Notes: generated by a model from the letters alone, not told the origin. A stretch of 64,000 nucleotides of DNA from Candidatus Thorarchaeota archaeon (GCA_016933575.1 JAFGAR010000101.1:96001-160000); one strand, 5' to 3'. Positions 36,382 through 58,026 are shown, counted from the first letter of the stretch. Program-made: numbers and translations.

Positions 36382-36465
36382 ATCCACTCCTAAAAATTGC
36401 CAACATGGGTCAAAGACTCGTATTTATCAATGTAATATGAAAACTGGAGATTGGTTGCAGCCTCA

Positions 36466-37587: not shown

Positions 37588-37667
37588 TAGGATGATAAAT
37601 TACCTTCTTCGACAGTTTAAATTATAGAGATGTCCGAATACAGAGTTCACTGGAAGTGCTCATATCT

Positions 37668-39996: not shown

Positions 39997-42165
39997 ATGC
40001 AGGGCAGAAACATGCGTCGCGCCTGGGTTTCAATGATTGTTGTATTCTTTCTTACTGTTCTTGTATCTGCACCATCAACTAATTCTACTATTTCGCCATC
40101 ATATTCGGATCCTAACATCCGGGGACAGATTACTTTCTCTATTGAGAGAAACTGGACTGCGAATATAGTCCTTGTGAATTATGATGATTCCATAATCGAC
40201 AAATCTGTTCTTCTATCAGGTTTGCCAACAGAGAGAGTGTATGCAACATCGATGGGCTACATCAAGTACTGGATTGAATACAATGTGTATTTTGCCAGCT
40301 CATTATTCGTTACGCAACTCACAGATGTTATTCTGGATAACTCCATGAATGGCACTGATACTGGAACCTGTGTAAATGAAACTTCCTTATTATATCAACA
40401 GGCAAATCCGGATGAACCACAGACTATCTTCTATTCTCGTGATGGACGTAAGATTGATGGATATGTAATTGAGGATTGGCTTGAAGATAATCCTGTTATC
40501 GATCCTCCAGATCTTGGATATACGCTATATCTGTTCAATTTCTCCTCTCTAGATAGCTCAGGTCATTCTCTTGAACATTGGTATGATTATCACCCAATTG
40601 ATCCTGATACTGGGCAATCTCAAAACTGGTTTAGATTAGAATGGGACAATGAACTGAATCCTGATGTTTCTCTGGACTATCCTTTCTTTGGTGGACGGTA
40701 TAATTCATTCATTGTTGACCCAAGCGCCCATCAATGGTACCTGAAATGGTGCCGAATCTGGTGGAGTTCATCTATTAGCACTGAATACAATTTCTGGACG
40801 AAGGACCTTGAAGATATTCTCTCAGAGATTGATGTAGAATCGCCAGCTGGTATTACTGCTCTGAATGTGTATCTACGTGAATGTATCTGGGATCCTATAA
40901 CACAGTTGTTTTTCCCATATCAACACCAACCTGCAAAGTATGTTGAATCTGGTCTTTTGAGGTCTCTTGTTTTCTGTATGGATGTTGATGAAGGAATCTC
41001 AATTGATAGCTTAACATGGATTACAGATGCAGAGATGCAAAAGACCCATCTTGAGGAGTTGTATCCTTTCATAACTTGGGATGTGCAGGTAGACTTCCTT
41101 GACATTGATGACCATCTTGATTGGAATAATACGTTCTGGGCTGATGCTATAGTGGAACCTAATGGTACAGTGATTGCAGATGGATACAATATGTTCTATG
41201 CAATCTATGATGATATGAGACCTTTGTATATTGATGTTGATGATGAAAATATCAATGTCTTTGGAGTGGTCTTCATAAAACAACAAATGGAGATGCATTA
41301 CTTTGGTCTGGCGTACACCGGACTTGGTGGTGGTGGTCAGACTGTCATTTGGAAATCGCATGAGCGATATTATCGTCCTGATGGTGTGACTCAAAAAGAT
41401 GGTATTTCATCAGTTCAACTTCATGAGACCATGCATGCAGTCGGATTTCATCACACTTGGCAGCATGAGCACTACGCTAGTGATTTTTGTTATAGTCCGA
41501 TGGGTTATTTTGCATTCCATAATGGGACATCAACTTTTGACAAGAACTGGGTGCAAGGAACATACCTTGATCAGATGGAAATCGAGCTCTTTGAGAACTT
41601 CACTACAGAACAGGAAAATGTTGGTCCGGATGAACGTGCCGAGACGTATCTAGCTGAGAGTAATGCAATATCCAGTTTTAACAGAGTGAGGACACTGTAT
41701 GATAAAATGGACTGGTTGGGGGCTTTTGATGCTCTCTGTGATGCTCGAGACTGGACTCGACGTATGAAGTTTTCAATGCTAGACACAACCCCTCCCATAA
41801 TCAATGACTGGAGCATCACACAAACAACATCAGGAGCTTTCAGTCTTTGGGCAGATATCGCTGATGATCTATCAGGGATTGAGAATGTAAGTATCTACTA
41901 TCAGGTAGATGGAGCTGTCCAAGAGTATTCGGCTGCATGTGTTTACAATGGGAGTCACTGGATAGGTACTATTTCATCTACATCTGCAAGTCAATCTATT
42001 ATTTCTTGGATCAAAGTCTGGGATTGGGGTATGAACTCCGCAGAGAGTGAAAGAATTAGATGGACTGTGGCTGCAGCTGCGCCTCCTTGGTATTTGTATA
42101 TCTTGCTCTTCACCGGAGTCGCTTTAGTTGCAATAGTCATTATCTTTGTTATTAGGCGTAGATAA
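39997..42165 (+). CDS. Membrane-anchored metzincin zinc metalloprotease
   Basis: Signal peptide; HETMHAVGFHH = HExxHxxGxxH (41422-41454); SPMGY Met-turn; C-terminal TM ending IRRR. Confidence 0.8.
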   Translation: MQGRNMRRAWVSMIVVFFLTVLVSAPSTNSTISPSYSDPNIRGQITFSIERNWTANIVLVNYDDSIIDKSVLLSGLPTERVYATSMGYIKYWIEYNVYFASSLFVTQLTDVILDNSMNGTDTGTCVNETSLLYQQANPDEPQTIFYSRDGRKIDGYVIEDWLEDNPVIDPPDLGYTLYLFNFSSLDSSGHSLEHWYDYHPIDPDTGQSQNWFRLEWDNELNPDVSLDYPFFGGRYNSFIVDPSAHQWYLKWCRIWWSSSISTEYNFWTKDLEDILSEIDVESPAGITALNVYLRECIWDPITQLFFPYQHQPAKYVESGLLRSLVFCMDVDEGISIDSLTWITDAEMQKTHLEELYPFITWDVQVDFLDIDDHLDWNNTFWADAIVEPNGTVIADGYNMFYAIYDDMRPLYIDVDDENINVFGVVFIKQQMEMHYFGLAYTGLGGGGQTVIWKSHERYYRPDGVTQKDGISSVQLHETMHAVGFHHTWQHEHYASDFCYSPMGYFAFHNGTSTFDKNWVQGTYLDQMEIELFENFTTEQENVGPDERAETYLAESNAISSFNRVRTLYDKMDWLGAFDALCDARDWTRRMKFSMLDTTPPIINDWSITQTTSGAFSLWADIADDLSGIENVSIYYQVDGAVQEYSAACVYNGSHWIGTISSTSASQSIISWIKVWDWGMNSAESERIRWTVAAAAPPWYLYILLFTGVALVAIVIIFVIRRR

Positions 42166-42220
42166 AAGTAAGACATAAGGATAGCACGAGTTCGCAAAAA
42201 CGACATTCATATTACTGACG

Positions 42221-42258
42221 ATTTTTCGAGAGAGATTCAATTTTTCGAAAGGGATTCA
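42221..42258. repeat. Tandem 19-bp direct repeat upstream of the giant-protein genes
   Basis: ATTTTTCGAGAGAGATTCA / ATTTTTCGAAAGGGATTCA (2 mismatches). Confidence 0.7.
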
Positions 42259-42350
42259 ATCAGCATCTATTCATATAGTAGAAGGCACAACACTCCACTG
42301 TCAATAGCATAGGTGTAACTATAGCTATGACCATGTAGGAGACCATCCAA

Positions 42351-45300
42351 ATGAGAATAACGAGACTGATGGGTTTGCTTCTTATACTCCTCCCTCTACT
42401 TCTAGGTGTCTTCATCACCCCGCCTGTTTGGAGGGCTGGAACACAAGATTCTGCGGAAAGCAAGACCGTCGAACTCTCAAATGGAGAGAAGATTCAGATC
42501 GCTCCAGATGAGTATATCGAAGAGTATCATCTTTCTGATGCTCCCACACAGATGTCAGGAACTGGAGACTCACTCAGAGCCAATGAGTCTGGAGTTCGTG
42601 TAGACACTTTCACAGATGAACCACTTTACTATAATTCAGCAGGTTCTACAACCACTACAGCTAATCTATCTGTACCGATTGGAGAAGGCTGGGAGTCGTA
42701 TGCTGTCTACACTGATGTGACGAGCATTACAGAAAACAGAACATGGGTTCAAAACTCTGGTCTTGATGACTCATCAAGTTGGACATTTCTATCTCATGAT
42801 GAACCTTCAGTCTTTGGTCCGTCTTATACAAACGCTATGACCTCTCAATGGGAAAATAATGGTCATGGCGCTGGAGATGGTTGCGCATATTTCTACATGG
42901 ATGGTTATTACTATGATTTAGGTGGAGGTCTTAGAGGTGACTGGTATGATGTTGGTGATAAAGCCTACATGGTTCAGGATCTTACAATTGATCGTGGTGA
43001 TGTTTCTAAGATAGGAATCTCATTGGACTACTGGGGTGATGTTGCTTGGGGTATCATGACAGGTTTCTTCGAGTTGTTCGTTTCCATCGGAGATCCTGAT
43101 AATGGCGGAACATATCTTTGGAACATGCCTTTTGATGCTTTCACAGATGATCTCACATGGTACTCAACTGGCTACATTGAAATCGATATCTCTTCTGTAA
43201 CACTGCCCAATATCCCACTCTGGGTAGGTCTACGAACGACAGCTTTTGAGTGGTGGCGTCCTGACATCAATCCTGTTGGCCGAATGGACAATATTGTGGT
43301 GTATGTCACAGCTAAAGCTGCTCCATCAGATATCAATTTGCAGATGAATGGAGTAGATGTATCAGATGTCATTCAGGGTTCAAATCCAATTTTTGGTCTT
43401 GGCACAGCTTGGTACGTCCCAGTTGTTCCCTGGACTGAAGGTGCTGCCTATGCTAACTTTTCTTGGACTCCTATTCCTAATCCTCCTGATCCTGACTTCA
43501 ATATCAATATCGCACTAGATGTGGATGTGTATGTGTTTGCACGAAAAGTAAACAGCTTGACTGTAAATGACACAGAACTAATTACATTAGGTGACAACTT
43601 TGTGGTCTCAAATGCGACTTCTGTTAGCTGGGAAACAAATTACTATCTCACAATACCTGGTGGATATGAAGACCAATTCTTCTTCAATTTATCAATCCCG
43701 CTGAATCGGGATATCACATTTGTTTCTGAACCTGCTCATCGATATACAAACCTTACAAGTGATTGGTATTTTGGAAATCCTGGTGATGGGGTTGTTAACA
43801 TTTCAGTATATGATATGGGACTTTCTGACCCTAACGGTTTCTGGATGATTCGTGGAACTTCACCAAATATGGTTACAAACTTGCAAGTCTGGGATGACAC
43901 TCTAAGTCAGTGGGTCCAAACAAAGACTTTCAGAGCAAACGAAGACACGCGATTTAGAGCAGTCCTACCATCATTCTATGAAGATGATGTAGTGACATTT
44001 ACCATTTATGATTCAAATGGTAACATTTGGGATACAGTAACAGGTACAGTTGATTCATCAGGTTTCGCAGTATCCACCTATGTAAATTTGGATGCTGTCA
44101 CCGCTGAGGTTGGATCTTGGGAAGTTCAAGCATATGTGGGAGATAGCATCTCCAGTCCAGATGTCCATAACATTGGATTTTATCGAAGATCTTTCAGCAT
44201 AGTCCATAGTACACAATTGAGTATCAAGTATCCTATTGCAAGCCGTATAACATGGAGTATCAATGTGACATATGGTTCAATAGTCTTCCTTCAATTACGC
44301 GTGAATGATACTGATAATGGAGACCTCCTAGCTGGTGGAATGCTGACTTACACTGGGGGTCTTGGCAGCGGCACTGCAAATGATCTGGGTACAGGTGAAT
44401 ACAGTATCACATTGAGCACAACTCTACACACAAATGGCGCTTATAGTATGAATCTTGCTTGGTCAAAAGGCTACTATGATTCTCTCATCGATACCTTTAC
44501 TGTAAATATCATTTATGAAACAGAATTCCTCTCTCCTGATGCCCCTGGAATTGATGTAGCTAGTGGGAACGATGCAGTCCTTCATGTTCATTTTGAAGAC
44601 ATGCTAAATCAACCAATTGATGGGGCTTCAATTGTATGTAACTGGTCACAGAGTTATGCAATAACACCTGAAGGCTCTGGAGATTATGTACTTAGTCTAG
44701 ACACTTCTGGAATGACTCTCGATCTCTATCCGGTTCTCATAACTATATCAAAGGACTATTATCAGACTCGATCAATTATTCTTAGAGTTGAAGTAAGAGA
44801 ATTGCGTGCTTCTGCGATACCATCTTCGAGCTTACTCTCACTTCCAGTTGGCTATACTACTTCATTCACGATAACATATACCGATACAGATCTTCAAGCT
44901 CCAATAACTGGTGCTGCAGGAATTATCAAGTGCAATTGGTCTGATATTCATTCGTCTGGAGATCAAAATTATACAGTGACCGAAACTACACCTGGAATCT
45001 ATGAGGTTGTTATCTTCTCGATGGATGACGATGTTCTTGATTCTTACGATGTATTGTTCACAGTTGAGCGCTATGGCGCACAGAATCAATCGTTTGTTGT
45101 GACTGTTGAGTTACGAACCCATTTGACTTCTCTATACCTAGAGAATTCAGTGGAACCTACTGCATATACCGGAAATATCACTGTCAATCTCGTCTATTAT
45201 GATGTAGATGCTGATACGGGAATTGTTAATGGTACGACAAGTGGTGGTTATGTTGAGTTAATTATAACGAGTCCTACCCTTGTTTCTCCGACCTTCTATG

Positions 45301-48300
45301 TGTATTCAATATCGCCGGAAGGACTCTATGTAATCCATATTCCAGCCAATCAATGGGGAAATATTGGAACTAAGACTCTTAACATTGAAGTCAACTGGAT
45401 AGGAGTGAACCTGAAATATTCCAATCTAACTCTCTCAACCCCTGCCACGATTACCGATGCTCCAACGGATATCTTCATTGGAGAGAGCCCTGTCGTAACA
45501 GCTTTTGGTGAGAATATCACATTCACAATAATATACTATGACATTAGTGCACTTACAGGCGTTGTTAATGGAACAGGTCCGTTCTCAGGAAATGTTCACA
45601 TCTATATTGATGTCTTAACAGCTGGGGAAACAATTACACAAGCTGATATGACTATCACTGAAATTGATTTTGTAACAAATCCCGGTGAATATAGAATTAC
45701 ATTCAATTCCACACTGCTTAGTGGACTAGGTACAGTACAACTAAGACTCTGGTTCAATTGGACTGATGCGGCACTACCTTACTATCAGAATCAAGTGATA
45801 GTGATTGCTGTCATCACTTCACATCGCTTAACAACTGTTGATCGGAATCCACTCCCTCTGACCCCATTTGATGAAATGGTAAATCTCACATTCACATATC
45901 GTGATTCGCTCAGTGGTTTAGCGATTCTAAACAGTTCTCAACTCTCGGTCAGTGTACCAGGTTACCCGTCTTTCAACATCTACTATCTTGGTGATATCTC
46001 AGGTATCTTTGTTGTAGAAATTAATACCTCTGTATTTATTGTCGGTAGCCATTCATTCTACCTAGACATTGTCTGGGTCGGTGCCCCTTATTATCAAAAC
46101 AGGACAAATGTGCAGATTTTCATTACAGTGAGAGAGCGCTACACTGATTTGACCCATGGTACCTATTCGCCTATCCAAATTGGCAATACACTCAATTTGA
46201 ACTTCACTTACCGCGACCTAGATGATTACACATCTATCGGAATGGATGGCGCAACTCTTTCCTTGGATGGATGGTTAACTGGTAGTTATTCTGTTGAAAA
46301 TATTGGAAATGGCATATACACCCTACATCTTGACACGACCGCATTCAGTAATACAGGAACATTCTTAGTAAATGTCACAATTATCTACGGTGGATCACGT
46401 AATTGCGCTGATGCATCAGATGTATTCTATCTAACACTTACTGTCCGACGTACACAGCTCACAAGTGACCTACCTGAATTGGCTCCCTTCCTAACAAATG
46501 CTACTATCGTGGTTTATTATACTGATGATACGACTGATGCTGGAATTTCCGGTGCCGCTGCGAATGCATCTTGTTCAGCAGCCATTGATCCACTGCAATA
46601 TGGTGTAAATTATTGGGTCATAGATAATATGGATGGTAGCTATACTATTATTATTGATACTGCAGCGTTAGGCAATTTTGGACCCTATACAATCGCAATA
46701 ACAGTGACATGGAACTCCGGTTGGCCTTTCTATCAACAGCGTGTTCGCAATGTTAACATCGAAGTTTCTCGCCGACCAGTTTCACTTACCGTTTCAAAGT
46801 CTCCATTGAATACTCCATTCCTATCTAATGCTACCTTTGAAATCACTGTGACAGATCAACTAGATAGTTTTGGAATCACCTTGGTAAAGAATAATCTAAT
46901 TCTTACTCATGGTATCGGAGGTACACTCATCACAAATAATCAATACTCCATAATAGGATCCAATGGTGTCTATACGATTTCTATCAATTCTCAGATACTC
47001 ACTAGCATTCTAGAAAATGAACATCCTATATTCATTCTATTTGTTTGGGGTGATGCAATCCCATATTATTCGAATGCATCTTCTACCACTGAAGTATCTA
47101 TAATTACAAGATACACTCAAGCTGTTGTTTTGCAGACTCCACCAGGTTATTACTACTTCAACATGAGTGCTCTATTGCGATATAATGACTACTTGACGGG
47201 TACAGGAATTATAGATGCAACTGTCACAATATCATGCTTGAACACAACTAGTTTCGATTATTGGTTCATAGATAATAGTGATGGAACTTATACTGTTCTT
47301 ATCGATACAAACACTCTATCTGGATTGGGGCGTTACTATTTCCGTGCTAATTTTACATATTTTGGAACTCCATACTATAGGAATGTCACTAATGTTCAAT
47401 TCAATCTTGTAGTTAATCCAGTTTCTACAACTCTAAGCTTTACATTACCTCAAGGAGTTACCTATTACCTTGGAGATATGGTCTATGCCAACATCTCTTA
47501 CTTCTCTATTGAGTTTGGAACTGGGATTGAAAGCGCAACAATCAGTACTGATTGGGACACACTCTATGGTACTAGTAGCACCATCAGCGTTCTAGCGCCT
47601 GGAATTTATCAAATAGCTATAAACACATCTGGTTTGAATGCTCAGCAGTACCAGTTCACTGTGAATGCAAGTAAGTACCTTCACCTAAGCAAATCCATTC
47701 AAGCAGAAATCCTAATAGCTGCAATTCCAGTCGAGATTGAACTTGTGTTTACACCTCAGAATCCAATGTGGGGTGATTCAGTTCAGTTCCAAGCTAATAT
47801 CACAGATGCAAGAACGGGTTTCCCAGTAATTGGAGCTTATGTTAATTTCACTCTGGAATTTACGACATTAGTCATGTCTTCTGTTGCGGATGGTCTTTAC
47901 AATTGTACATTAGATACATCAACATTGACATCTGGTGAATTCAATATCAGAATACAATCCACCTTACTCAACTACGAGACAAGACAGAAGGATTTCCAGA
48001 TACGGATTGAGAAAGTAGCGTCTAAGATTCTTGCTTCGATTGACCCTCAATCTGCGGTCGATGGTCAGATTGTAACTCTCGAGGTTGATTATCTAATATA
48101 TTCCTCAAGTCTGTCTATTTCCACAGGTACTGTGACCTTCTCCTGGATTGGAGGTTCTGGTTCAATAAGTTGGTCCATTATCGATGGCAAATATGTTGGC
48201 ACTTTTATCGTTACTGGAGCAGATGTTGGTAGCTACCAGATTCTTGTGCAAGCCTCATCTCCAAACTATAAGAGTGTGAGCTATCTTGTGACTATAGAGA

Positions 48301-50180
48301 TTACCGAGATTCAGACGGAGCTTGTTCCTATTTCTGAATCTATTGTTTCAGTGAACTACAGGGACATTGCAATAATTACTGTGTACCTCAATAACACTGA
48401 TCTTAATCAACCAGTGACTGGAGCGTCCATGAGTTTCGGAGTTGGAACAATTGTTGGTGATCTAATTGAGTTACCAACTCCTGGTTACTATAATGCCTTG
48501 GTAAATACAAGTGAATTAAGTGTGCAAGAATGGACTGTGTCAATATCCAGTGACAAACTCGGATATACTCCAGCTTCAATACAATTCACACTTGATGTAC
48601 AAGAGATTGAAACTGAGATTGTCATATTGACCTCCGGAACAGTATCCGGGTATTATGGACAAATCGTCACTTTCTACTTCCTCTTCAACGATACTCATGC
48701 CAATCTCTCTATCCCTGGAGCAATCACTAACTATACTCTTGAAACTCTGAGGGGATCTCTTGTTGATCATGGCAATGGAACATATAGTCTGACTCTAAAT
48801 ACAACAGTTGTGGTTGCAGGTACTGTGCCTCATGACATCACAGTTTCTTTCAGAAAAGACAACTATGAATATTCATCTGGTCTTGTAAAATTGCTTGTCC
48901 TTCCAATTCCAACATCTATCATAGGTCCTGTTGAAGCAACATTTCCAGTGTATGATAACTATTCAATGCTATTCAGCTTCAGAGATACTTTGAATGATGA
49001 GTGGATTACTGACGGAACTGCAACTGTAGTATGGGAATTTGGTACTGCATTATTGACAAATCTCAATAATGGATCTTATATGTTCGGGCCAGCTGAGGCT
49101 AATTTAACCAATTCTCTCCAAGATCGTTTGAATCCATATAGAGTCAGAATATCAATCTCAAGGACTAATTATTCTAGAACAGACATTGAAGTCTTTCTTA
49201 CGATACGCGAAATCAGCACCCAAGTTATTCATATAGATCCTATAACACCAATCTATGTAGGAAGTCTATTTTACGTAAATGTAACATTCTACGATACTGA
49301 TCATAATCTTGTGATATTGAATCCAGTCATCACTTTTACTTCAGACAGTGCAATCGATGATGGTCTCGCCAGAGAAACCAGCCTCGATATTGATTGGGGC
49401 AATGGAACCTATTCTATAGCGTTCAGGGCTCCAAATCTTGCATTCTACACACTGGAAATAGCTTTCACCAAGACTGACTATGTACTCGGTTCTATTAGCC
49501 TTGACATTTATGCTAAACTGAGTCCTGAACAAGAGGCTTTGGTCAGTACTTTCCAATATAGTACAATTGGAATTCTGGCAATTGCTGCTCTGGCTGCACT
49601 CTATTTCAGAGTACTATCAGTGCCAAGGCTCCTTAGAATCTTACGTCGAATGGTTTCAAGCTTAGGCAGAGGTGTAATACCAAAACCAGCCAATGTTCCT
49701 ATTAGACGTCAAATGATTCTATCAATGATGAATGAGGACCTTGCATCAATTTCTCTTGTGAAAACTATGGACGACATCTCCATATCTACGGTTGATGTTG
49801 CGGCGATGGATGTTGAGAGTCTATTAGATGAACTAGCTTTTGTAGTTGGTCTTACTGAGAGTGACGTAGATACACTCAGAAGAGACCTGGATCAGATGCG
49901 CCCCAGTGAGCGGGCTGGGTTCATCAATGAAGTTCTGAAGCAAGAGAGGGCTCGTCGAGCCAAAGAACTGGCTGAAGCTGATCTTGCGACCAAAGAGGGC
50001 GTTCCAAGCGAAGCCGTTGAAGAGCGGTTAAGCGAAGATGAACTACTGCATCTAAAGGAGCGTTTGATGAAGATGGGTATCGAGGAAACTGAAGCTGACC
50101 TGATGGTTGAGCAAGCTAAGAATTTGACAAAAGCAGAGATAGATGCTCTGCTTGATGAGATAGGAGGGATGGAAGAATGA
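42351..50180 (+). CDS. Giant (2609 aa) Ig-like repeat type-I membrane glycoprotein A
   Basis: Signal peptide; many ~100-aa repeats (Y.D.D...GA, DN.DG.Y...IDT); many N-x-S/T sequons; TM near 49560-49610; ~190-aa charged tail. Confidence 0.85.
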   Translation: MRITRLMGLLLILLPLLLGVFITPPVWRAGTQDSAESKTVELSNGEKIQIAPDEYIEEYHLSDAPTQMSGTGDSLRANESGVRVDTFTDEPLYYNSAGSTTTTANLSVPIGEGWESYAVYTDVTSITENRTWVQNSGLDDSSSWTFLSHDEPSVFGPSYTNAMTSQWENNGHGAGDGCAYFYMDGYYYDLGGGLRGDWYDVGDKAYMVQDLTIDRGDVSKIGISLDYWGDVAWGIMTGFFELFVSIGDPDNGGTYLWNMPFDAFTDDLTWYSTGYIEIDISSVTLPNIPLWVGLRTTAFEWWRPDINPVGRMDNIVVYVTAKAAPSDINLQMNGVDVSDVIQGSNPIFGLGTAWYVPVVPWTEGAAYANFSWTPIPNPPDPDFNINIALDVDVYVFARKVNSLTVNDTELITLGDNFVVSNATSVSWETNYYLTIPGGYEDQFFFNLSIPLNRDITFVSEPAHRYTNLTSDWYFGNPGDGVVNISVYDMGLSDPNGFWMIRGTSPNMVTNLQVWDDTLSQWVQTKTFRANEDTRFRAVLPSFYEDDVVTFTIYDSNGNIWDTVTGTVDSSGFAVSTYVNLDAVTAEVGSWEVQAYVGDSISSPDVHNIGFYRRSFSIVHSTQLSIKYPIASRITWSINVTYGSIVFLQLRVNDTDNGDLLAGGMLTYTGGLGSGTANDLGTGEYSITLSTTLHTNGAYSMNLAWSKGYYDSLIDTFTVNIIYETEFLSPDAPGIDVASGNDAVLHVHFEDMLNQPIDGASIVCNWSQSYAITPEGSGDYVLSLDTSGMTLDLYPVLITISKDYYQTRSIILRVEVRELRASAIPSSSLLSLPVGYTTSFTITYTDTDLQAPITGAAGIIKCNWSDIHSSGDQNYTVTETTPGIYEVVIFSMDDDVLDSYDVLFTVERYGAQNQSFVVTVELRTHLTSLYLENSVEPTAYTGNITVNLVYYDVDADTGIVNGTTSGGYVELIITSPTLVSPTFYVYSISPEGLYVIHIPANQWGNIGTKTLNIEVNWIGVNLKYSNLTLSTPATITDAPTDIFIGESPVVTAFGENITFTIIYYDISALTGVVNGTGPFSGNVHIYIDVLTAGETITQADMTITEIDFVTNPGEYRITFNSTLLSGLGTVQLRLWFNWTDAALPYYQNQVIVIAVITSHRLTTVDRNPLPLTPFDEMVNLTFTYRDSLSGLAILNSSQLSVSVPGYPSFNIYYLGDISGIFVVEINTSVFIVGSHSFYLDIVWVGAPYYQNRTNVQIFITVRERYTDLTHGTYSPIQIGNTLNLNFTYRDLDDYTSIGMDGATLSLDGWLTGSYSVENIGNGIYTLHLDTTAFSNTGTFLVNVTIIYGGSRNCADASDVFYLTLTVRRTQLTSDLPELAPFLTNATIVVYYTDDTTDAGISGAAANASCSAAIDPLQYGVNYWVIDNMDGSYTIIIDTAALGNFGPYTIAITVTWNSGWPFYQQRVRNVNIEVSRRPVSLTVSKSPLNTPFLSNATFEITVTDQLDSFGITLVKNNLILTHGIGGTLITNNQYSIIGSNGVYTISINSQILTSILENEHPIFILFVWGDAIPYYSNASSTTEVSIITRYTQAVVLQTPPGYYYFNMSALLRYNDYLTGTGIIDATVTISCLNTTSFDYWFIDNSDGTYTVLIDTNTLSGLGRYYFRANFTYFGTPYYRNVTNVQFNLVVNPVSTTLSFTLPQGVTYYLGDMVYANISYFSIEFGTGIESATISTDWDTLYGTSSTISVLAPGIYQIAINTSGLNAQQYQFTVNASKYLHLSKSIQAEILIAAIPVEIELVFTPQNPMWGDSVQFQANITDARTGFPVIGAYVNFTLEFTTLVMSSVADGLYNCTLDTSTLTSGEFNIRIQSTLLNYETRQKDFQIRIEKVASKILASIDPQSAVDGQIVTLEVDYLIYSSSLSISTGTVTFSWIGGSGSISWSIIDGKYVGTFIVTGADVGSYQILVQASSPNYKSVSYLVTIEITEIQTELVPISESIVSVNYRDIAIITVYLNNTDLNQPVTGASMSFGVGTIVGDLIELPTPGYYNALVNTSELSVQEWTVSISSDKLGYTPASIQFTLDVQEIETEIVILTSGTVSGYYGQIVTFYFLFNDTHANLSIPGAITNYTLETLRGSLVDHGNGTYSLTLNTTVVVAGTVPHDITVSFRKDNYEYSSGLVKLLVLPIPTSIIGPVEATFPVYDNYSMLFSFRDTLNDEWITDGTATVVWEFGTALLTNLNNGSYMFGPAEANLTNSLQDRLNPYRVRISISRTNYSRTDIEVFLTIREISTQVIHIDPITPIYVGSLFYVNVTFYDTDHNLVILNPVITFTSDSAIDDGLARETSLDIDWGNGTYSIAFRAPNLAFYTLEIAFTKTDYVLGSISLDIYAKLSPEQEALVSTFQYSTIGILAIAALAALYFRVLSVPRLLRILRRMVSSLGRGVIPKPANVPIRRQMILSMMNEDLASISLVKTMDDISISTVDVAAMDVESLLDELAFVVGLTESDVDTLRRDLDQMRPSERAGFINEVLKQERARRAKELAEADLATKEGVPSEAVEERLSEDELLHLKERLMKMGIEETEADLMVEQAKNLTKAEIDALLDEIGGMEE

Positions 50181-53100
50181 AAACTACACACAGACTCATC
50201 CCCATTATGTTCGTTATTGTAATGATGGTAGCACCGGTATTTCTCACCCATAATCCATCAATGGGAATGACTACAGGCCAAGATACAACCAGTGATTTAG
50301 GAACTCGTGAAGTTGATATTGGAAATGGTGAGATGATTGAACTTGCTCCTAACGAGATTCTCCACACGTATGTACTCACCGAACAAGGGTGGGTAGAATG
50401 GAGTAGTACCAGTGATCCACTTATTGGTTCTGAATATGGAAACAGCATTAATATTTTCAATAATCGACAGATGAAATACATACCCGGTAGTGCCACAACC
50501 TCAGTTCAAACAGGTATCTCAATTGGCACGGGTTGGGAAGCTTATGAAGCACGAGTGGCAATTAGTAGTCTTACTGAGAATAGAACATGGATTACTAATC
50601 CTGGATTTGAAGGAGGCTACACAGGTTGGACTCGAGTGGCTACTTCTAATGCAGGATACAGTACTGTTAGCGCAAGTTGGATCGATGATGGTCATGGAAC
50701 AGGTAACGATTGTGTTGAAGTCGATATAAACTCAGATAGCACAAGTGAGCCATTCTATTATGACCAAGGTGATGATGCATGGTATCAGCAGGTTGCAACT
50801 GTAAATCGTGGTACTGTGGTTTGGGCTGCTCTTAGAATGAATTTCTGGGCCGATACTGTGGACGACACTCACTATGGTATGACCGGTTCATTCAGGTTAT
50901 ATGCAAATATCGAAGGAACTGATATCTGGCGAAGAGTCTTTTCCGATATTGGTGCTGAAGAAACTTGGTATGACACTGGTCTACTCACGGTAAATCCATC
51001 AGTCTTTGGGCTACCCGGCGATACGAGCATAACCACAAGAATAGGTATGTTGTCACTAGCTACTGTTGGATATGCACCAAATATCCATCCTAAAGCCAGA
51101 TTCGACAACATTGTACTCTATATGAAGACTCTAGTCAATCCTAGTGAAATCAATCTTCAGATGAATGGACTTAGTATCAGCAATAGTGGAACAAGAGGCA
51201 TTTGTTCAATTACTCAAACACCTGGTACTCCTTGGACAACATCTCCAGTTACACTCACATTCACGTGGACTCCAGTACCAACAACGCCAAATCCCAATAG
51301 CGAGATAAGAATTGACTTTAACATTAATGTGAATATGTTCGCTAGGCATTACGATCTTGATAGTCTCTATGAAATTAGTCCAACATCTTTCGGAGAACGA
51401 TTTACTATCCAAAATGGCACTAATGCTGAATTCACATCTTACTTTAGAGCCAATATTCCCACAGGATATGCAAATCGGTACTTCTTCAATGAGACAATTC
51501 CAATAGATCGTGACGTTTACTTTGTAGCTCAACCATTAGCACCAACCACCAATCTTACCTCTGGATGGAATGGAGGGGACCCTGGCGATGGCTTCCTAAA
51601 TGTATCAACATACTTGATTACAACCGAACCCGGAAGGTATGGATATTGGAGAATCTTGAGTAGGTCTCCAAATATGATATCAGATGTGCAGCTTTGGGAT
51701 CCAAACTCAAGTATGTGGACTCGCGATGCTGATTTACGTGCTGGTGATATCAGCCGAGTATTGGTGAATGTTGGTTCACAATATGCTGGCTCTTTAGTAA
51801 ACATCACTCTATACAAACCGGATGGTTCTGTTTGGCAAACATTCAGTACTACTGTGAACTCGACTGGATATGCAACAACGAGTAGCTTCACACTCTCAGG
51901 CGCAACAGCACCTGCAGGTAGTTGGATGGTACAAGCTACGACTAGTAATGTAGGTGCAGGAGGAGAATGGACATCTGTGGGTCTATTCAAGAGACCATTT
52001 ACAATAACTCATGAATCCACTATCAATCTACAATATCCTACAGACGCCATTGGGACTATGATAACCAATGTTACCTATGGTGATCTACTCCTGATTATTC
52101 TGGAAGTAGAAGATATTGACAGCTCTGTATTGGTACCGGGTGGTACCCTTACTCTGGATTGGTCTTTTGGAATTGATACTTTTGATGATAATGGAAATGG
52201 TCAGTATACTAAAGTCATAGACACATCTGAACTACCCGGAAAAGGTCAATATACAATGGATTTGGATTGGGTGCACCCAAGTTTTGATCCATCCAACACT
52301 GCTCTCACAATCAACATTAATTATGCAGCGACTCTGACATCGCCTGACTATCCAGGAATTTCAGGTCCTGTGGGTGATGACCAATCATTCACTACTCGAT
52401 TTGCTAATGTGAATGGCACCGGGATCACCACTGCCAATCTATGGTGTAATTGGTCGAATCCGTATACTGTTGTTCCTCTTGGTTTGGGTAATTATGAATT
52501 CCAACTAGACATGACTGGTATACCAATTGGAGAATATCCAATTGAGGTACACGCAACAGGACCATTTGTTGAACCTCAATCCATGTTGATGTATGTTGAA
52601 GCAAGAGAAATCTATAACTCAATCTCTTACACCTCAAGCCAACTCTCTATACCCTTGGGTGAAGCAGCATCATTCGTCTTGACTTGGACTGATACTGATC
52701 ACAATGTCCTCATCTCTGGCTCAGCTTCATCTATATCATGCAACTGGACCCCATTCCACTCATCTGGAGACACAAATTATACTGTTGTTGAGATATCTCC
52801 TGGTAAATATAACATTACCATCTTTACCAAGAATACAGATCCATTGACAGGAACAGATCTCATCACTGTTAGATTCAACGTGTTCAAGACGAATTACAGA
52901 AGTCACATATTTGACATCGGTGTTGCGATACGAAAGAGGAACACGCTCTTTGTTCTCGATGCTCCGATAAGTCAGACTCCATTTGGAAGCACTATCACTG
53001 TTTTGGTATTCTACCAAGATACTGATTTACGTGTAGGTATTGGTAATGCTACTAATGAAGTAAAAATCACAATAACATCAACAGAGATTGGAACAGTAGC

Positions 53101-56100
53101 ATTCACATGTACGCCATCCTCTCTTGGGCTAGGCCACTACAATATTTCAATTGATAGTGGACAATGGGGAAGCATTGGTTGGAAGGACCTTAGTATATTC
53201 ATAGAGTGGACAGGAGTAGTCGATAAATTCTATAGTCAGACCATCAATACTTCAGCACGGATAACTGGTACTGATACTGACCTCTATCTTGAGATAGCCC
53301 CAACCGCAACGTACTATCTTGACACATTTACATTCACAGCAGTCTACTATGATACAGTTGGGCTGCAAAGGATTAGTAATTTAACAAACAATGTCTTCAT
53401 ACTTCTCACTGCCCTAGATACTGGACATTCAGTAACTCAGAGTGATTTCACCATTGTTGAATCTGGGACAGTACCTGGTACTTACATATTCACTTTGGAT
53501 AGCACTCTGTTTCCAAGTACTGATACATTCCGGTTCCAGCTTGATTTCATGTGGAAGAAGGGTGCGATCCCTAGGTATGAAAATGCAACAATGGTTGTAT
53601 CATTGATTGTACTAGATCGCCCCACATATATCGACTACTCTCCCATCTCATCTACACCATACGGAGAGGATGCAGAACTTCGGTTTAGCTTTGTTGATAC
53701 ACTCACATCGACAAAGATTGATGATTCTGCTCAATTAATTGTGTCTTTGAACGACCTTGGAGTATCATTCTCATATTCGTTTAACGCATTAACACATGAA
53801 TTCACACTTCTGATTGACACTGGCTCAATTGGTAGTATTGGTGTCCATATCATCCATCTGAACTTGACATGGAGTGGAAGTCCATTCTATGCATCAGTCA
53901 CCAATAAACCAATTACCTTGTCAGTGATACTTCGACCTACGCAGCTTTCCCACCTGTCCTTTGCTCCAAGTCAGTGGGGAAATAACATCACCATTCAATT
54001 CGTTTATACTGATATTGTCGTTGGATCAACGGCTGGAATGTCTGGAACATTGACTCTGAATATTGCAGTTGACAAATATTCTGTTGTATATGGTCCAGAA
54101 GGGCATTTCTTTGTAACTATCAACACAACAGCGTTTGCATCTGATGGACTGTATTCAGTCACAGCTACTGTGGTTCATACAAATCCGAACTATCAGACTG
54201 CAATTGAGACCTTTGACATATCAGTTCTAAAACGTTCTACACAACTTGGTTATGATAGCCCTGATCCAGCTTCCTATGGGTCCAATGTGAGCTTGCATAT
54301 CATCTACACTGATGATAGTACTGGTAGAGGAGTAGTTGGTGCAACAATTGCCGTCACAGGAAATGGCACCTATAGCTTGGTGTTGAACACTAATTATTGG
54401 ATTACCTACACAGGAGATGGGCGCTATCTTATAGAAGTCAATACAACAGCACTTGGAGTTCCTGGTGTCTACTTGTTGGAAATCGATGTGAGCTTCAGCG
54501 GAGAACCATTCTATCTTCCAGGTTCTCAGGATGTCATTGCCAGAGTTGTAGAGAGAACAACTCAGATTCTAATCACACAAACACCTGGTGAAGTACCATT
54601 CCAAGAGAATGTTGTATTCCGATTCAAATATACTGACTTTCTATTAGGTACAAAAATCAGTATTGACCAGTCAGATATTACCCTTACTCATGGTGTATCT
54701 CACACTGTGATTACTTCTGGTCAATACACTCTCAATGAATATGCAACATATTATGAGATTATCTTTAGTTCTCTGATCATCAATCCAAGTGCACTTGAAA
54801 CCGGGCATCCGATTCAGATTACAATTGATAAAGGCTCAGGAGAACCTTACTATGCTCCAAGAAGTACTTCAACATCAGTGACGATAATACAAAGATCCAC
54901 TCAAATTCTGTTACCACTCGTCGAAGATACACCATATTACGACAACATAACAATTCAATTGAGTTATATTGATTATCTAACTGAAACAGGAATTGACGAT
55001 GCATTACTTGTCATCTCAAGTGACAACTGGACTGTACCTGAATATACTCTAATACGTGAAGGAAATGGTGTTTATACAATCCTCATAAATAGCAGTTTAT
55101 TTGGTGACATCGGTAATGTATACTTTGATATCACACTGAGTAAATCTGGTTCCCCATTCTATACAAGTAGGACAAGATATGATGTCCCAGCGACTATTAC
55201 AACCATCCAAACTTCTATCATTGCTGAAGCTCCAGCAGCTGGTTCTACCGCAGTTGGAGCTCCCATTGAAGTTACCATAACCCTTCGTGATTTCGACCAC
55301 GATAAGCTTCTTGAAGGTGCAATTATCTCCACGAATTGGACACAACTATTCGGAACAGGTTATACTATTGATGAATTAGGATCTGGAGTATACACAATTA
55401 CCTTAATCACTGAAGGCCTACTAGCTCAAAAGTTCACCTTTCAAGTCTGGGCGGAGAAATCTTACTATGCTACAGCGATAGCGACGGTGTCTGTTCAACC
55501 TGGAGCAGCAACTGTTGAGATATATCTGGAGAAATCAACCTATTATTCCGATTGGGGTGAAATGGTCAATATCACGTTCCAAGTGAGAGAACCATATTAC
55601 AATACTCCAGTAACAGGAATGACTGCTACACTCCTTTGGAATGGAGTACTATATGGTTTCACAGAAGGTACGAATGGATACTATACTTTGTTACTTGATT
55701 CATCTGAGAATAATTATGGTATCTATAATCCTCGGATTACAGTTACAAAATTATACTATCAGCAGAAACAAAGAACCTTCACATTAGTCGTTTCAAAGGC
55801 CACTGGTCAGATTATACCTGAATCTTCACTCTATGAGGTCGTCGCAAACACTTCTGTGAATATTCAGATTTATCTCAACGACACCGTTTCTGCATTACCA
55901 GTAACTACTGCTACTGTCAACATAGAATTCAATGGAACACTTTACTCTCTAACACATATTGGTGGTGGATTCTTTAGTACTAACTTACCTGTAACCAATT
56001 TTGCTATTGGCCAGTATCCTCTGATAGTTCGCGCTAATGCAGTGAATCATGTATTCCTTGAAATCATCATAGATGTCAATATTGTGCCAATCTACACAGA

Positions 56101-57919
56101 ATTGAAATTCACTGAATCCATATCTCTAATCACTGCATACTTTGGCGATAGTATTAACATCTTAGTGATCTATAATGATACTTACTACAATACGCTAATT
56201 TCTAATGCAAACATATCGTACACTCTTGGTAGCTTGACCGGAGTATTGACGGAAGAAGCAAATCATACCTATAGTGCATCAATTGATATTAGCTCTTTGG
56301 GTTCCCAATCGATATACCTCAGGTTGACTGCCTCAAAGGCAGGTTATGCAACTGCGCTGAGGTCAATCATTGTGACAATCCTACCAATTCCCACATCAAT
56401 AAGTGTACTACCTAGTGATGCTTTGAAGTCAGGTTACTTTGGTAATAAATTGAATTTCACATTCTTCTATAACGATTTGCAACATGGTGTCGGTATTGCT
56501 GGTGCTAATGTTGTAGCTACTTGGGAAGGAGTTGGTTATACAGTCTATGATTTTGGAAATGGCAGATATGTCGTTCAGGTTACGTTATCAATAACAACTC
56601 CTGGTCTATATGACTTGGCTGTAAGATTCAATCTTCAGAATTATACTGCACGTTCGATAACGACAAAAGTTGAAATCTATGCAACACCTGCACAGATTTA
56701 TGGTCCTGCAACCTACTCATCGCCTATTAATGATACAATCACTATTGAGTTCGTTATCAAGAATTCATTCACTAGTAGTATCATCTCTGACATTGTCGGA
56801 ACTGCTTCTTCAGTTCAATTAGGCGATATAGACCTGCAATTACTACCAAGTGGAAACTATACTTTGAATCTTGAGGGAGACCTCCCATATGGATTCTATA
56901 GCTTTACAATTTATTTTGCTACAACAAAATACGTAATATCTCCATTCTATCTTGAAATAGAAGTTAGACAAGTAAAGAGTCAATCTCAACATGGGTCTCT
57001 AAACGTACTCACTCAACCCGGTGGTTCTGTTGAGTTTACAGTGACTTACCTAGATGCAGATCACAATCAAGGTATTCCTGGTGCTAATATCTCCTTTGTC
57101 TATGATGATAATTTAGTCCAATACTTGGAGGAGTACACTATTGATAATGATGGTACATATACCTTCTATTTCCTATCAAGAGCTGGAGGGACTGCAACGA
57201 TTGAGATAACCCTTAGTAAAGATGGGTTCGACACGCAAGTTATCATTCTAAGAGTCCAATCAGATATCTCCGCCGAACAGCAGTTCCAACAGACCTTGAC
57301 AATTGGTGGTGGATTTGGTATCCTCATCGTTGCCTTGCTCCTCATAGGTTATGTTAAGGTCTGGTCTATCCCCTGGTTGATTCGTCAAATGAACAGAATG
57401 ATTCGTGTTCTCTCGAAGGGTCGAGTTCCAGGGCCTCCAAAAGTTAAGTCCAGACAAGATATAGCGATGGTTATCGTCAATGAAGAGATTGCATCATTGC
57501 ACCTTCAGAAACCACGAGAGGATATTGCACCTGAGCCCATTGTGACAACTGTGCCAGAAGTCAATGAACTTCTTGAAGAACTTGCTTCTATTACTGGACT
57601 TGGAGAAGCTGAGATTGAAGCTTTCCGTGCAGATCTCTCTAGGATGAAAGCCAGTGAGCGACCAGGATTCTTGAAAGAAGTCATTAATCAAGAGAGAGCT
57701 CGTCGAGCTGATGTCTTGGCAAAACCAGTAAAAGAAACAAAAACTCCAGAGCAAGTTCCTCTCTCTGAATTGCCCGGAGAACTTGAAGATCTCAAACAGA
57801 AGCTTCTCAAGAAAGGCATGGCAAGCGATGAGATTGATATCATCATCAACGAAGCCAAGTCTCTCTCAAAGGCAGATCTCGATGCGCTTCTTGATAGTCT
57901 TGGAATTGATCTAGATTAG
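50177..57919 (+). CDS. Giant (2580 aa) Ig-like repeat type-I membrane glycoprotein B, paralogue of A
   Basis: Collinear with A (IG.GWE.Y, TENRTW, GHG.G..C, INLQMNG, CNW, SER.GF..EV..QERARRA); ATGA overlap with the A stop; TM near 57302-57355. Confidence 0.85.
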   Translation: MKTTHRLIPIMFVIVMMVAPVFLTHNPSMGMTTGQDTTSDLGTREVDIGNGEMIELAPNEILHTYVLTEQGWVEWSSTSDPLIGSEYGNSINIFNNRQMKYIPGSATTSVQTGISIGTGWEAYEARVAISSLTENRTWITNPGFEGGYTGWTRVATSNAGYSTVSASWIDDGHGTGNDCVEVDINSDSTSEPFYYDQGDDAWYQQVATVNRGTVVWAALRMNFWADTVDDTHYGMTGSFRLYANIEGTDIWRRVFSDIGAEETWYDTGLLTVNPSVFGLPGDTSITTRIGMLSLATVGYAPNIHPKARFDNIVLYMKTLVNPSEINLQMNGLSISNSGTRGICSITQTPGTPWTTSPVTLTFTWTPVPTTPNPNSEIRIDFNINVNMFARHYDLDSLYEISPTSFGERFTIQNGTNAEFTSYFRANIPTGYANRYFFNETIPIDRDVYFVAQPLAPTTNLTSGWNGGDPGDGFLNVSTYLITTEPGRYGYWRILSRSPNMISDVQLWDPNSSMWTRDADLRAGDISRVLVNVGSQYAGSLVNITLYKPDGSVWQTFSTTVNSTGYATTSSFTLSGATAPAGSWMVQATTSNVGAGGEWTSVGLFKRPFTITHESTINLQYPTDAIGTMITNVTYGDLLLIILEVEDIDSSVLVPGGTLTLDWSFGIDTFDDNGNGQYTKVIDTSELPGKGQYTMDLDWVHPSFDPSNTALTININYAATLTSPDYPGISGPVGDDQSFTTRFANVNGTGITTANLWCNWSNPYTVVPLGLGNYEFQLDMTGIPIGEYPIEVHATGPFVEPQSMLMYVEAREIYNSISYTSSQLSIPLGEAASFVLTWTDTDHNVLISGSASSISCNWTPFHSSGDTNYTVVEISPGKYNITIFTKNTDPLTGTDLITVRFNVFKTNYRSHIFDIGVAIRKRNTLFVLDAPISQTPFGSTITVLVFYQDTDLRVGIGNATNEVKITITSTEIGTVAFTCTPSSLGLGHYNISIDSGQWGSIGWKDLSIFIEWTGVVDKFYSQTINTSARITGTDTDLYLEIAPTATYYLDTFTFTAVYYDTVGLQRISNLTNNVFILLTALDTGHSVTQSDFTIVESGTVPGTYIFTLDSTLFPSTDTFRFQLDFMWKKGAIPRYENATMVVSLIVLDRPTYIDYSPISSTPYGEDAELRFSFVDTLTSTKIDDSAQLIVSLNDLGVSFSYSFNALTHEFTLLIDTGSIGSIGVHIIHLNLTWSGSPFYASVTNKPITLSVILRPTQLSHLSFAPSQWGNNITIQFVYTDIVVGSTAGMSGTLTLNIAVDKYSVVYGPEGHFFVTINTTAFASDGLYSVTATVVHTNPNYQTAIETFDISVLKRSTQLGYDSPDPASYGSNVSLHIIYTDDSTGRGVVGATIAVTGNGTYSLVLNTNYWITYTGDGRYLIEVNTTALGVPGVYLLEIDVSFSGEPFYLPGSQDVIARVVERTTQILITQTPGEVPFQENVVFRFKYTDFLLGTKISIDQSDITLTHGVSHTVITSGQYTLNEYATYYEIIFSSLIINPSALETGHPIQITIDKGSGEPYYAPRSTSTSVTIIQRSTQILLPLVEDTPYYDNITIQLSYIDYLTETGIDDALLVISSDNWTVPEYTLIREGNGVYTILINSSLFGDIGNVYFDITLSKSGSPFYTSRTRYDVPATITTIQTSIIAEAPAAGSTAVGAPIEVTITLRDFDHDKLLEGAIISTNWTQLFGTGYTIDELGSGVYTITLITEGLLAQKFTFQVWAEKSYYATAIATVSVQPGAATVEIYLEKSTYYSDWGEMVNITFQVREPYYNTPVTGMTATLLWNGVLYGFTEGTNGYYTLLLDSSENNYGIYNPRITVTKLYYQQKQRTFTLVVSKATGQIIPESSLYEVVANTSVNIQIYLNDTVSALPVTTATVNIEFNGTLYSLTHIGGGFFSTNLPVTNFAIGQYPLIVRANAVNHVFLEIIIDVNIVPIYTELKFTESISLITAYFGDSINILVIYNDTYYNTLISNANISYTLGSLTGVLTEEANHTYSASIDISSLGSQSIYLRLTASKAGYATALRSIIVTILPIPTSISVLPSDALKSGYFGNKLNFTFFYNDLQHGVGIAGANVVATWEGVGYTVYDFGNGRYVVQVTLSITTPGLYDLAVRFNLQNYTARSITTKVEIYATPAQIYGPATYSSPINDTITIEFVIKNSFTSSIISDIVGTASSVQLGDIDLQLLPSGNYTLNLEGDLPYGFYSFTIYFATTKYVISPFYLEIEVRQVKSQSQHGSLNVLTQPGGSVEFTVTYLDADHNQGIPGANISFVYDDNLVQYLEEYTIDNDGTYTFYFLSRAGGTATIEITLSKDGFDTQVIILRVQSDISAEQQFQQTLTIGGGFGILIVALLLIGYVKVWSIPWLIRQMNRMIRVLSKGRVPGPPKVKSRQDIAMVIVNEEIASLHLQKPREDIAPEPIVTTVPEVNELLEELASITGLGEAEIEAFRADLSRMKASERPGFLKEVINQERARRADVLAKPVKETKTPEQVPLSELPGELEDLKQKLLKKGMASDEIDIIINEAKSLSKADLDALLDSLGIDLD

Positions 57920-57925
57920 ATATGG

Positions 57926-57951
57926 TGAAGCTGGTTTCGAGGCCAGCTTCA
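57926..57951 (+). terminator. Hairpin terminator after giant gene B
   Basis: TGAAGCTGG/CCAGCTTCA followed by TTCTTCT. Confidence 0.65.
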
Positions 57952-58026
57952 TTCTTCTAATCAAATTTCATGTCTATCGAACTTGATGGAAAACAATTAA
58001 GAGTGATTCCTTGTTCGTGTGCAACC

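Follow-up and report, generated by a model that had tools for sequence, protein, structure and literature searches.

A stretch of 64,000 nucleotides of DNA from a Candidatus Thorarchaeota archaeon (GCA_016933575.1 JAFGAR010000101.1:96001-160000), hereafter the window, contains two giant genes, A and B, which are co-oriented and overlap by ATGA. Both giants end in a tail that directly follows a single membrane helix; the structure, conservation, distribution and possible function of this tail are considered here. The features concerned are as follows, with positions counted from the first nucleotide of the window.

42351-50180, + strand: giant A gene, 2609 amino acids (aa), with a signal peptide, a glycosylation-rich ectodomain, one membrane helix and the tail; assigned from the open reading frame (ORF) and its translation.
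49548-49619, + strand: membrane helix of giant A, residues 2400-2423, a hydrophobic run directly before the tail.
49620-50177, + strand: tail A, residues 2424-2609, 186 aa.
49620-49751, + strand: juxtamembrane element of tail A (residues 1-44 of the tail), with two helices, the first basic and amphipathic, joined by a K/R-G-x-[IV]-P-x-P turn.
49803-50000, + strand: module 1 of tail A (residues 62-127 of the tail), a three-helix unit with the signature M..SE...F..EV..QE..R.A.
50001-50024, + strand: variable linker between modules 1 and 2.
50025-50177, + strand: module 2 of tail A, tail residues 136-186, an acidic three-helix bundle.
50177-57919, + strand: giant B gene, 2580 aa, with the ATGA overlap at the stop codon of A; assigned from the ORF and its translation.
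57296-57367, + strand: membrane helix of giant B, residues 2374-2397.
57368-57916, + strand: tail B, residues 2398-2580, 183 aa, which aligns end to end with tail A.
57368-57499, + strand: juxtamembrane element of tail B.
57551-57745, + strand: module 1 of tail B.
57764-57916, + strand: module 2 of tail B.

The N-termini of both giants are hydrophobic and resemble signal peptides. The ectodomains contain 55 (A) and 41 (B) N-x-S/T sequons, while the tails contain one (A) and none (B). The charge flanking the membrane helix is -2 before and +4 after it in A, and -1 before and +3 after it in B. The signal-peptide-like start, the distribution of the sequons and the change of charge across the helix indicate a type I topology, and A and B are predicted to be single-pass membrane proteins of this type, with their tails in the cytoplasm. 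A sequence-only reading of the window, made earlier, had placed tail A at 49610-50180. The tail itself was correctly recognised; its start needs to be moved, since position 49610 is three codons early and lies inside the end of the membrane helix. The motifs quoted in that reading (VPRLLRILRRMV, IPWLIRQMNRMI, and the patterns given for modules 1 and 2) can all be found in the translations.

When comparing the C-terminal stretches of A and B (the last ectodomain residues, the membrane helix and the tail), an end-to-end alignment with 39% identity is obtained (BLASTP, E 4e-48); the level of identity of the whole proteins is 32%. The similarity is distributed unevenly: it is 49% in module 1 and 45% in module 2, compared with 25-34% in the ectodomain blocks and 13-19% in the two linkers. 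A comparable picture emerges from the orthologues. In 54 orthologues of similar length, the mean identity to A is 70% for the tail and 58% for the ectodomain, and within the tail it is 78% for module 1, 79% for module 2 and 60% for the juxtamembrane element. The best-conserved 60-aa segment of the entire giant A in the orthologue comparison begins at residue 2481, within module 1. The tails had been described as being among the best-conserved regions of the pair, and these values bear this out; far from being unconserved in orthologues, they are the most conserved part of the giants. Within each type, the tails are 75% (A-type) and 72% (B-type; mean column identity over 22 genomes) conserved, and each type has its own invariant positions. 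Given that each tail type is conserved within itself, yet A and B tails share only 39%, the split between them is old and both versions have been kept, which points to non-redundant roles of the A and B tails.

The tail was modelled using AlphaFold2 with an alignment of 27 sequences, and module 2 was additionally modelled on its own with 49 copies. The model of tail A is entirely helical, with a mean predicted local distance difference test (pLDDT) value of 82 and a predicted template modelling score (pTM) of 0.38; with such a pTM for the whole tail, the placement of the modules relative to each other is not fixed. The juxtamembrane element begins at a proline located right after the membrane helix and contains helices at tail residues 3-16 and 29-44 (pLDDT 85-95). 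The first of these helices has a hydrophobic moment of 0.79 in A and 0.70 in B and charges of +4 and +3, respectively, and the charge of the element in A amounts to +6 over tail residues 1-28.

Module 1 is predicted to consist of helices 65-76, 80-91 and 95-127, the last and longest of which bears a face of near-invariant polar and hydrophobic residues. Its signature M..SE...F..EV..QE..R.A is present in A as MRPSERAGFINEVLKQERARRA and in B as MKASERPGFLKEVINQERARRA. Across 37 diverse sequences, the distant giants included, the residues L72, M93, S96, F101, V105, Q108 and E109 never vary; E97, E104 and R112 are conserved in at least 92%. The conservation of exposed polar residues along one helix of module 1 suggests that more than the structural core is under constraint. 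The linker that follows is poorly defined in the model (residues 128-133, pLDDT <50) and in sequence: the region of tail residues 123-137, which is slightly wider than 50001-50024, shows 42% identity in orthologues and 13% between A and B.

In the whole-tail model, module 2 contains helices 139-151, 156-166 and 171-185. Modelled alone, it reaches a pLDDT of 89 and a pTM of 0.68, with helices at positions 4-16, 21-31 and 36-50. L149 is invariant across the 49 copies, and E141, E158, Q165 and A166 are at least 92% conserved. A and B each have one terminal acidic copy of module 2, with net charges of -10 and -5, and the whole tails carry -14 (A) and -6 (B). The module is net negative in 48 of the 49 copies, with a mean of -6.3. 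Since both module 2 and the whole tail are acidic, protein binding fits them better than nucleic-acid binding. The helices predicted for modules 1 and 2 agree with the two three-helix modules that had been proposed from the sequence, and the pLDDT values of the tail (82) and of module 2 on its own (89) correspond to ordered rather than disordered structures.

The two modules had also been taken for an internal repeat. A comparison of the module 1 profile (37 sequences) with the module 2 profile (49 copies) using hhalign gave a probability of 76% and an E-value of 2.2e-5 over 30 columns, so that some repeat similarity is retained. However, the register differs from the earlier one by one helix: helices 2-3 of module 1 (GLTESDVDTLRRDLDQMRPSE...) are paired with helices 1-2 of module 2 (RLSEDELLHLKERLMKMGIEE...). 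According to this pairing, the unit common to both modules is a helix-loop-helix, and the similarity hints weakly at a common origin of modules 1 and 2.

A search for known relatives of the tail was conducted at the levels of sequence and fold. The tails, the stretch of membrane helix plus juxtamembrane element, and the Hermod- and Odin-type tails described below did not match any Pfam or NCBIfam family at the cut-off, giving only matches at chance level. The best hit of a sequence profile search of the PDB with the tail was a phage repressor linker (E 0.006), which is not meaningful. Fold searches with the whole tail returned a best E-value of 0.5 in Foldseek and a best Z-score of 6.5 in VIA-align, the latter for a helix bundle of an adenovirus cement protein; in the ESM Atlas, a shape search with the whole tail gave template modelling scores (TM) of 0.33 or less, and a feature search gave no usable match. 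For module 2, Foldseek listed 22 matches (best E 3.7), and VIA-align, for which the 50 best of 48,161 chains were examined, had a best Z-score of 5.5, with pieces of mTERF and MerR. The fold matches of both the tail and module 2 are generic three-helix pieces inside the stated background for helical models. NCBIfam sorting-domain models (PGF-CTERM and similar) detected no family on residues 2385-2475 of A, and on residues 2360-2450 of B there was one chance-level NCBIfam match (E 0.13) to the unrelated Psb32, a photosystem II repair protein.

Module 2 had been compared with Pex14-N and RecX repeats. The Pex14 N-terminal domain is likewise a small three-helix bundle of comparable size; Pex14_N (PF04695) scores 12.5 bits on module 2 of A against a cut-off of 23.2, and only over profile positions 31-46. 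Among the 49 copies, four have a Pex14_N match, the best with an E-value of 0.039. This family is absent both from the 22 Foldseek matches and from the 50 best VIA-align chains for module 2, an omission that does not amount to exclusion. RecX repeats (PF21982, PF02631) are similar to module 2 in being tandem three-helix units of ~45-50 aa with a helix, K-G, helix turn. A RecX match is absent from tails A and B at E-values up to 1 and from module 2 of A at E-values up to 10; RecX_HTH1 (PF21982) matches 11 of the 49 copies below the cut-off, and in one distant four-copy tail it attains 27.3 bits against a cut-off of 26, though only over positions 17-36 of the 40 in the profile. RecX is not among the 50 best of the 48,161 VIA-align chains (best Z 5.5), which again is an omission from a list and not an exclusion. 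Unlike RecX, module 2 is acidic and membrane-tethered, and the matches cover half of the Pfam model. Thus, of the likeness proposed to Pex14-N and RecX, what holds is a resemblance at the level of a motif (helix, K-G, helix); the matches are sub-threshold, with neither fold in the best lists, and membership of either family is not established. Two other candidates were rejected. A UBA/CUE-like domain, prompted by the K-M-G-I loop, has no counterpart among the weak Pfam matches of the 49 copies, which include no UBA-type family, nor among the fold matches. A SAP/LEM-like reading was set aside in view of weak SAP matches in only two of the 49 copies, the lack of a supporting fold match and the acidic charge.

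The search in Pfam, NCBIfam, PDB sequences, Foldseek, VIA-align and the ESM Atlas thus yielded no characterised family to which the tail belongs. No description of the tails was found in the literature searched. Giant genes arranged in tandem, in a pair of Thorarchaeota metagenome-assembled genomes, are the subject of a remark in Wu et al. 2022 (PMC8813620). The suggestion of an undescribed conserved intracellular domain therefore stands, as the tail is folded according to the models, conserved and without a match to a known family. It represents a domain family that has not been described and is for the most part specific to Thorarchaeota; its base is a juxtamembrane element common to Asgard lineages.

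The distribution of this family, defined by a tail sequence profile, was determined in 1.84 billion cluster representatives and in 400 genomes of the phylum. The profile matched 119 clusters among the representatives. In 115 of the 119, the match reaches the C-terminus, and a hydrophobic 19-mer stands directly before the match in 87 of the 90 representatives in which the match starts at the first profile positions and upstream sequence is present. In the genomes, the tail was found in 80 of the 85 species genomes of the family to which the window belongs and in the only genome of the sister family (1/1), with 1 to 11 matches per genome; in a genome search, tail B matches the profile with an E-value of 7.5e-67. 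The 61 loci from named genome records are all of Thorarchaeota type: most are labelled so, and the rest bear a generic or newer phylum name (one of them 'Hermodarchaeota'). The source names of proteins nearly identical to those of the window likewise point to Thorarchaeota, an Asgard lineage.

The tail is combined with different ectodomains. The A-type tail (51-84% identity) occurs on A-like giants of ~2600 aa and on giants of 2870-2923 aa with NHL/beta-propeller heads, and the tail is also carried by B-type giants. In the giants with NHL/beta-propeller heads, the head has been exchanged while stalk and tail have stayed constant. A more distant tier comprises giants of 3100-5500 aa, in which the juxtamembrane element and module 1 are retained and module 2 comes after them in tandem, with one to four copies; such variation in copy number marks module 2 as a discrete, duplicable unit.

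Several individual proteins can be noted in this connection. P0011, P0015, P0029, P0034 and others (2870-2923 aa; loci L014 and L018) have NHL/beta-propeller heads recognised by PF17170, PF01436 and PF08450; in some genomes these giants occupy the position of A, have A-type tails of 51-79% identity and still precede a giant of the B type. Single modules of the tail also turn up in short proteins with other surroundings. P0187 (341 aa) combines the juxtamembrane part with module 1 behind an uncharacterised soluble domain, and P0202 (191 aa) carries module 1; each is known from one short contig. In P0203, two repeats resembling module 2 come after an undecaprenyl-diphosphate-synthase domain. P0183 and P0184 appear to be chimeric products of the assembly.

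The juxtamembrane element extends further than the modules. A profile of 45 positions was built from 22 sequences of several Asgard lineages, the Hermod- and Odin-type families included; P2, R6 and R29 are invariant in this alignment. Both tails of the window match the resulting motif, P-x3-R ... [KR]-G-x-x-P ... R, with E-values of about 1e-17 to 1e-18, and they are the only two matches in the genome of the window. Matches were present in 192 of the 400 genomes. In four families, they were detected in 83/85, 16/19, 3/3 and 4/4 genomes, and in a large further family in 69 of 135 genomes; the matches in the latter are weaker and should be treated with caution, as the profile is short and basic. 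The source names of the motif-bearing proteins include Thorarchaeota, Hermodarchaeia, Hodarchaeota and Odinarchaeum yellowstonii.

The proteins outside the Thorarchaeota type share the tail to different extents. In another family of the phylum, where the whole-tail profile gave weak matches, the tails of giants of 1900-2700 aa have the first ~130 positions of the whole-tail profile in common with it, with a P-W/K-x-[IV]-R start, the G-x-x-P turn and a helix-loop-helix containing P-x-x-[DE]-R-x-W-F-x-E-D. At loci L003, L008, L009 and L012, which are probably from Hermodarchaeia, giants of the same length have tails of 190-254 aa, several with a lysine-rich end; the same juxtamembrane start is followed there by one to three helix-loop-helix repeats, L-S-x-x-E-K ... 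P-x-E-E-R. Odin-type surface proteins of 600-870 aa have only the first ~44 positions in common. The large further family and one other contain surface proteins of 1100-1800 aa with immunoglobulin (Ig) repeats that bear the motif on a short tail without modules, and their end is composed of a membrane helix, [FK]-Y-P-x-[IT]-V-R-K ... K-G-K-x-x-K-P ... S-R-x-D-L-I.

In G304, a genome of Odin type, the gene of an 862-aa motif-bearing protein is followed, 33 bases on, by an ORF of 363 aa encoding an adaptor with a longin plus a winged-helix domain. A motif protein next to the adaptor gene was also found in G300 (Odin-type) and in G128, from another family of the phylum. The genome of the window (G000) encodes an adaptor homologue of 388 aa (contig C140:37919-39049; locus L100, 9920-11086; E 2.3e-36, 27% identity over the full length), which lies on a contig separate from the giants, among unrelated genes and beside a thiolase-like gene. 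Adjacency was observed in G304, G300 and G128 only; in Thor- and Hermod-type genomes with comparable coordinates, the adaptor and motif genes are never neighbours. The Odin-type anchor/adaptor pairs are similar to the giants in that the first 44 residues of the Thor-type tails present the same P-x3-R ... G-x2-P ... R motif. They differ in their tails, as the short Odin- and Loki-type tails have neither module 1 nor module 2, whereas the Thor-type tails have both. The adaptor family is present in 310 of the 400 genomes and is scarce in families without the motif (2/31, 0/12 and 1/22). This shared distribution is weakly suggestive, being compatible with a link between adaptor and motif in genomes that are related and therefore not independent. 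A fusion of adaptor and anchor was sought in four long adaptor homologues and rejected, as their extra length consists of charged C-terminal extensions with no membrane or juxtamembrane parts.

The analysis above establishes the topology of the tail, its conservation, its predicted fold and modular composition, its distribution and the absence of known relatives; on this basis we propose that the tail is a membrane-proximal anchor and a protein-docking platform common to all these giants, and we consider the chances of this reading to be about even. The tail would probably link the cell surface to the cell interior. The juxtamembrane helix would lie on the inner face of the membrane and fix the C-terminal anchor, while modules 1 and 2 would be protein-binding sites tying the surface giants to the same cytoplasmic partner or partners. 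The modules are read as binding sites because catalytic motifs are absent, because their constraint exceeds that of the ectodomain, because one genome may carry several ectodomains on the same tail and because invariant polar residues line a face of the long helix in module 1. Several points weigh against this proposal. The docking role is argued from anatomy and conservation, and no candidate gene for a cytoplasmic partner is linked to the A/B pair, the downstream neighbour of which encodes a Trp/Tyr-tRNA synthetase. The arrangement of the modules relative to each other is uncertain at a pTM of 0.38. Small helical bundles could equally be suited to self-association or folding, and strong conservation is also what is expected of a short basic juxtamembrane segment if it is a sorting or insertion signal.

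The first of these alternatives deserves attention because it needs no separate cytoplasmic partner: the modules of neighbouring giants, notably of A and B, which have been called translationally coupled, would pack together under the membrane and fix the stoichiometry and spacing of a surface coat or an array of fibres. The ATGA overlap and the maintenance of the A-then-B pair across genera agree with this, and the tails of A and B are conserved but distinct, as complementary halves would be; the variable copy number of module 2 is also reminiscent of avidity-based assemblies. However, other tailed giants in the same genomes are single and located far from the pair, so that pairing is not the sole use of the tail, and the acidity of module 2 in both A (-10) and B (-5) disfavours contacts between two such modules. 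Self-association of this kind is, in our view, unlikely. A complex prediction for tail A with tail B, made without controls, gave a score of 0.00 and counts neither for nor against pairing. Somewhat less probable still is a signal for sorting or biogenesis, in which the juxtamembrane element, perhaps together with the modules, would be read by insertion, quality-control or localisation machinery for very large exported proteins, a role like that of C-terminal sorting domains. The position of the tail is always C-terminal, and the juxtamembrane element is its most widely shared part; in genomes labelled Thor, Hermod, Odin or Hod, and also in the large further family, it stands right behind the C-terminal membrane helix of surface proteins. 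Such a signal would not need 140 extra residues of folded modules, though, and it is the modules that are the better conserved (78-79% versus 60% for the juxtamembrane element); moreover, no NCBIfam model of a C-terminal sorting domain matches the membrane helix and juxtamembrane stretch.

The tail may also be imagined as a signalling domain that is released when a neighbouring protease sheds the ectodomain and a cut within the membrane follows, after which it would act in the cytoplasm, e.g., on nucleic acid via RecX-like units. A putative metzincin is indeed a conserved upstream neighbour, with homologues in 21 related loci, and there are the weak RecX_HTH1 matches in 11 of the 49 copies of module 2, one of them just above the cut-off. 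Nevertheless, these matches span only ~20 profile positions, and an acidic module 2 in 48 of 49 copies and a tail with a net charge of -14 (A) or -6 (B) are unlike a DNA-binding helix-turn-helix. The amphipathic juxtamembrane helix would, in addition, hold a freed tail at the membrane, and no site-2-type protease is linked to the locus, although no search aimed at such proteases was made. All this makes a released domain very improbable.

The docking platform can be extended into a more specific proposal, according to which archaea have an outside-in coupling system with the tail as its receptor half. The juxtamembrane motif would be held by the longin plus winged-helix (NPRL2-like) adaptor, and modules 1 and 2 would recruit cytosolic machinery, such as the cytoskeleton, small GTPases and membrane-remodelling proteins. 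We regard this extension as speculative and rather improbable as it stands; if it were true, the giants would be wired mechanically or informationally to the cell interior, as eukaryotic adhesion receptors are.

Among known prokaryotes, the Asgard archaea are the nearest relatives of eukaryotes, and, to our knowledge, little has been learned about the construction of their cell surface or its connection to the cytoplasm. A bare anchor is the normal end of surface proteins in prokaryotes. The haloarchaeal S-layer glycoprotein and tetrabrachion are very large, heavily N-glycosylated proteins with a C-terminal hydrophobic anchor and are encoded by core genes of their lineages. Archaeal S-layer anchors stop after a few basic residues, or a lipid takes their place (PGF-CTERM), with no folded cytoplasmic domain. 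The giants are similar to glycoproteins of the S-layer type in size, N-glycosylation and C-terminal anchoring, and differ from them by the folded cytoplasmic tail and the lack of a PGF-CTERM match. Their layout is that of eukaryotic type I adhesion receptors such as integrin beta and the classical cadherins: a large glycosylated ectodomain composed of repeats, one membrane helix, and then a basic juxtamembrane segment and a conserved tail under tighter constraint than the ectodomain; the paired subunits of integrins are comparable to giants A and B. In contrast to the giants, whose tails are folded helical bundles, integrins and cadherins have tails made up chiefly of short linear motifs or of disordered regions for catenin binding, and there is no relationship between them in sequence or fold. 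A core, multi-copy family of giants with a folded and highly constrained cytoplasmic domain has a layout characteristic of receptors for adhesion and signalling in eukaryotes.

The tail is also of practical use. The whole tail (186 aa) or its single modules (~50-65 aa) provide a defined and easily expressed bait for submembrane components, and the juxtamembrane element offers a sequence handle for the same class of anchor across Asgard lineages. Even if it has no partner, the tail defines an undescribed domain family, and it would be helpful for marking the principal surface proteins of Thorarchaeota.

The order of genes at the locus is retained across genera: the upstream membrane protein, A, B, the Trp/Tyr-tRNA synthetase and the LPG_synthase_TM gene (39997-60157). 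The genes flanking the pair are listed below.

39997-42165, + strand: upstream membrane protein of 722 aa, a syntenic neighbour of the A/B pair; a putative metzincin by an earlier label only.
57970-59118: Trp/Tyr-tRNA synthetase, the downstream neighbour of B.
59108-60157, minus strand: LPG_synthase_TM gene.

Homologues in the 61 related loci were found for the tRNA synthetase in 26, for LPG_synthase_TM in 28 and for the 722-aa protein in 21, the last count being limited by coverage, as many of the loci end before the upstream flank. The only Pfam match of the 722-aa protein is a weak one, to DUF7743.

A third surface protein of 1165 aa is encoded upstream at 32884-36381 (+ strand). Its single membrane helix leads into a cytoplasmic tail of ~200 aa that differs from those of the giants. 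The protein has no Pfam match and does not contain the juxtamembrane motif of the giants, and BLASTP shows no similarity of its tail to the adaptor with longin and winged-helix domains. Its gene is followed by that of a leucine-rich repeat (LRR) protein (36451-37587) and that of a 202-aa protein (37656-38264) with a weak rubredoxin-like (Zn-ribbon-type) Pfam match. No RNA run is listed as containing 48000-52000, and in two metatranscriptome runs of the same study, nothing mapped on 42000-58000, which is uninformative on expression. In one DNA run, possibly from the source sample, the entire stretch is covered by one contig.

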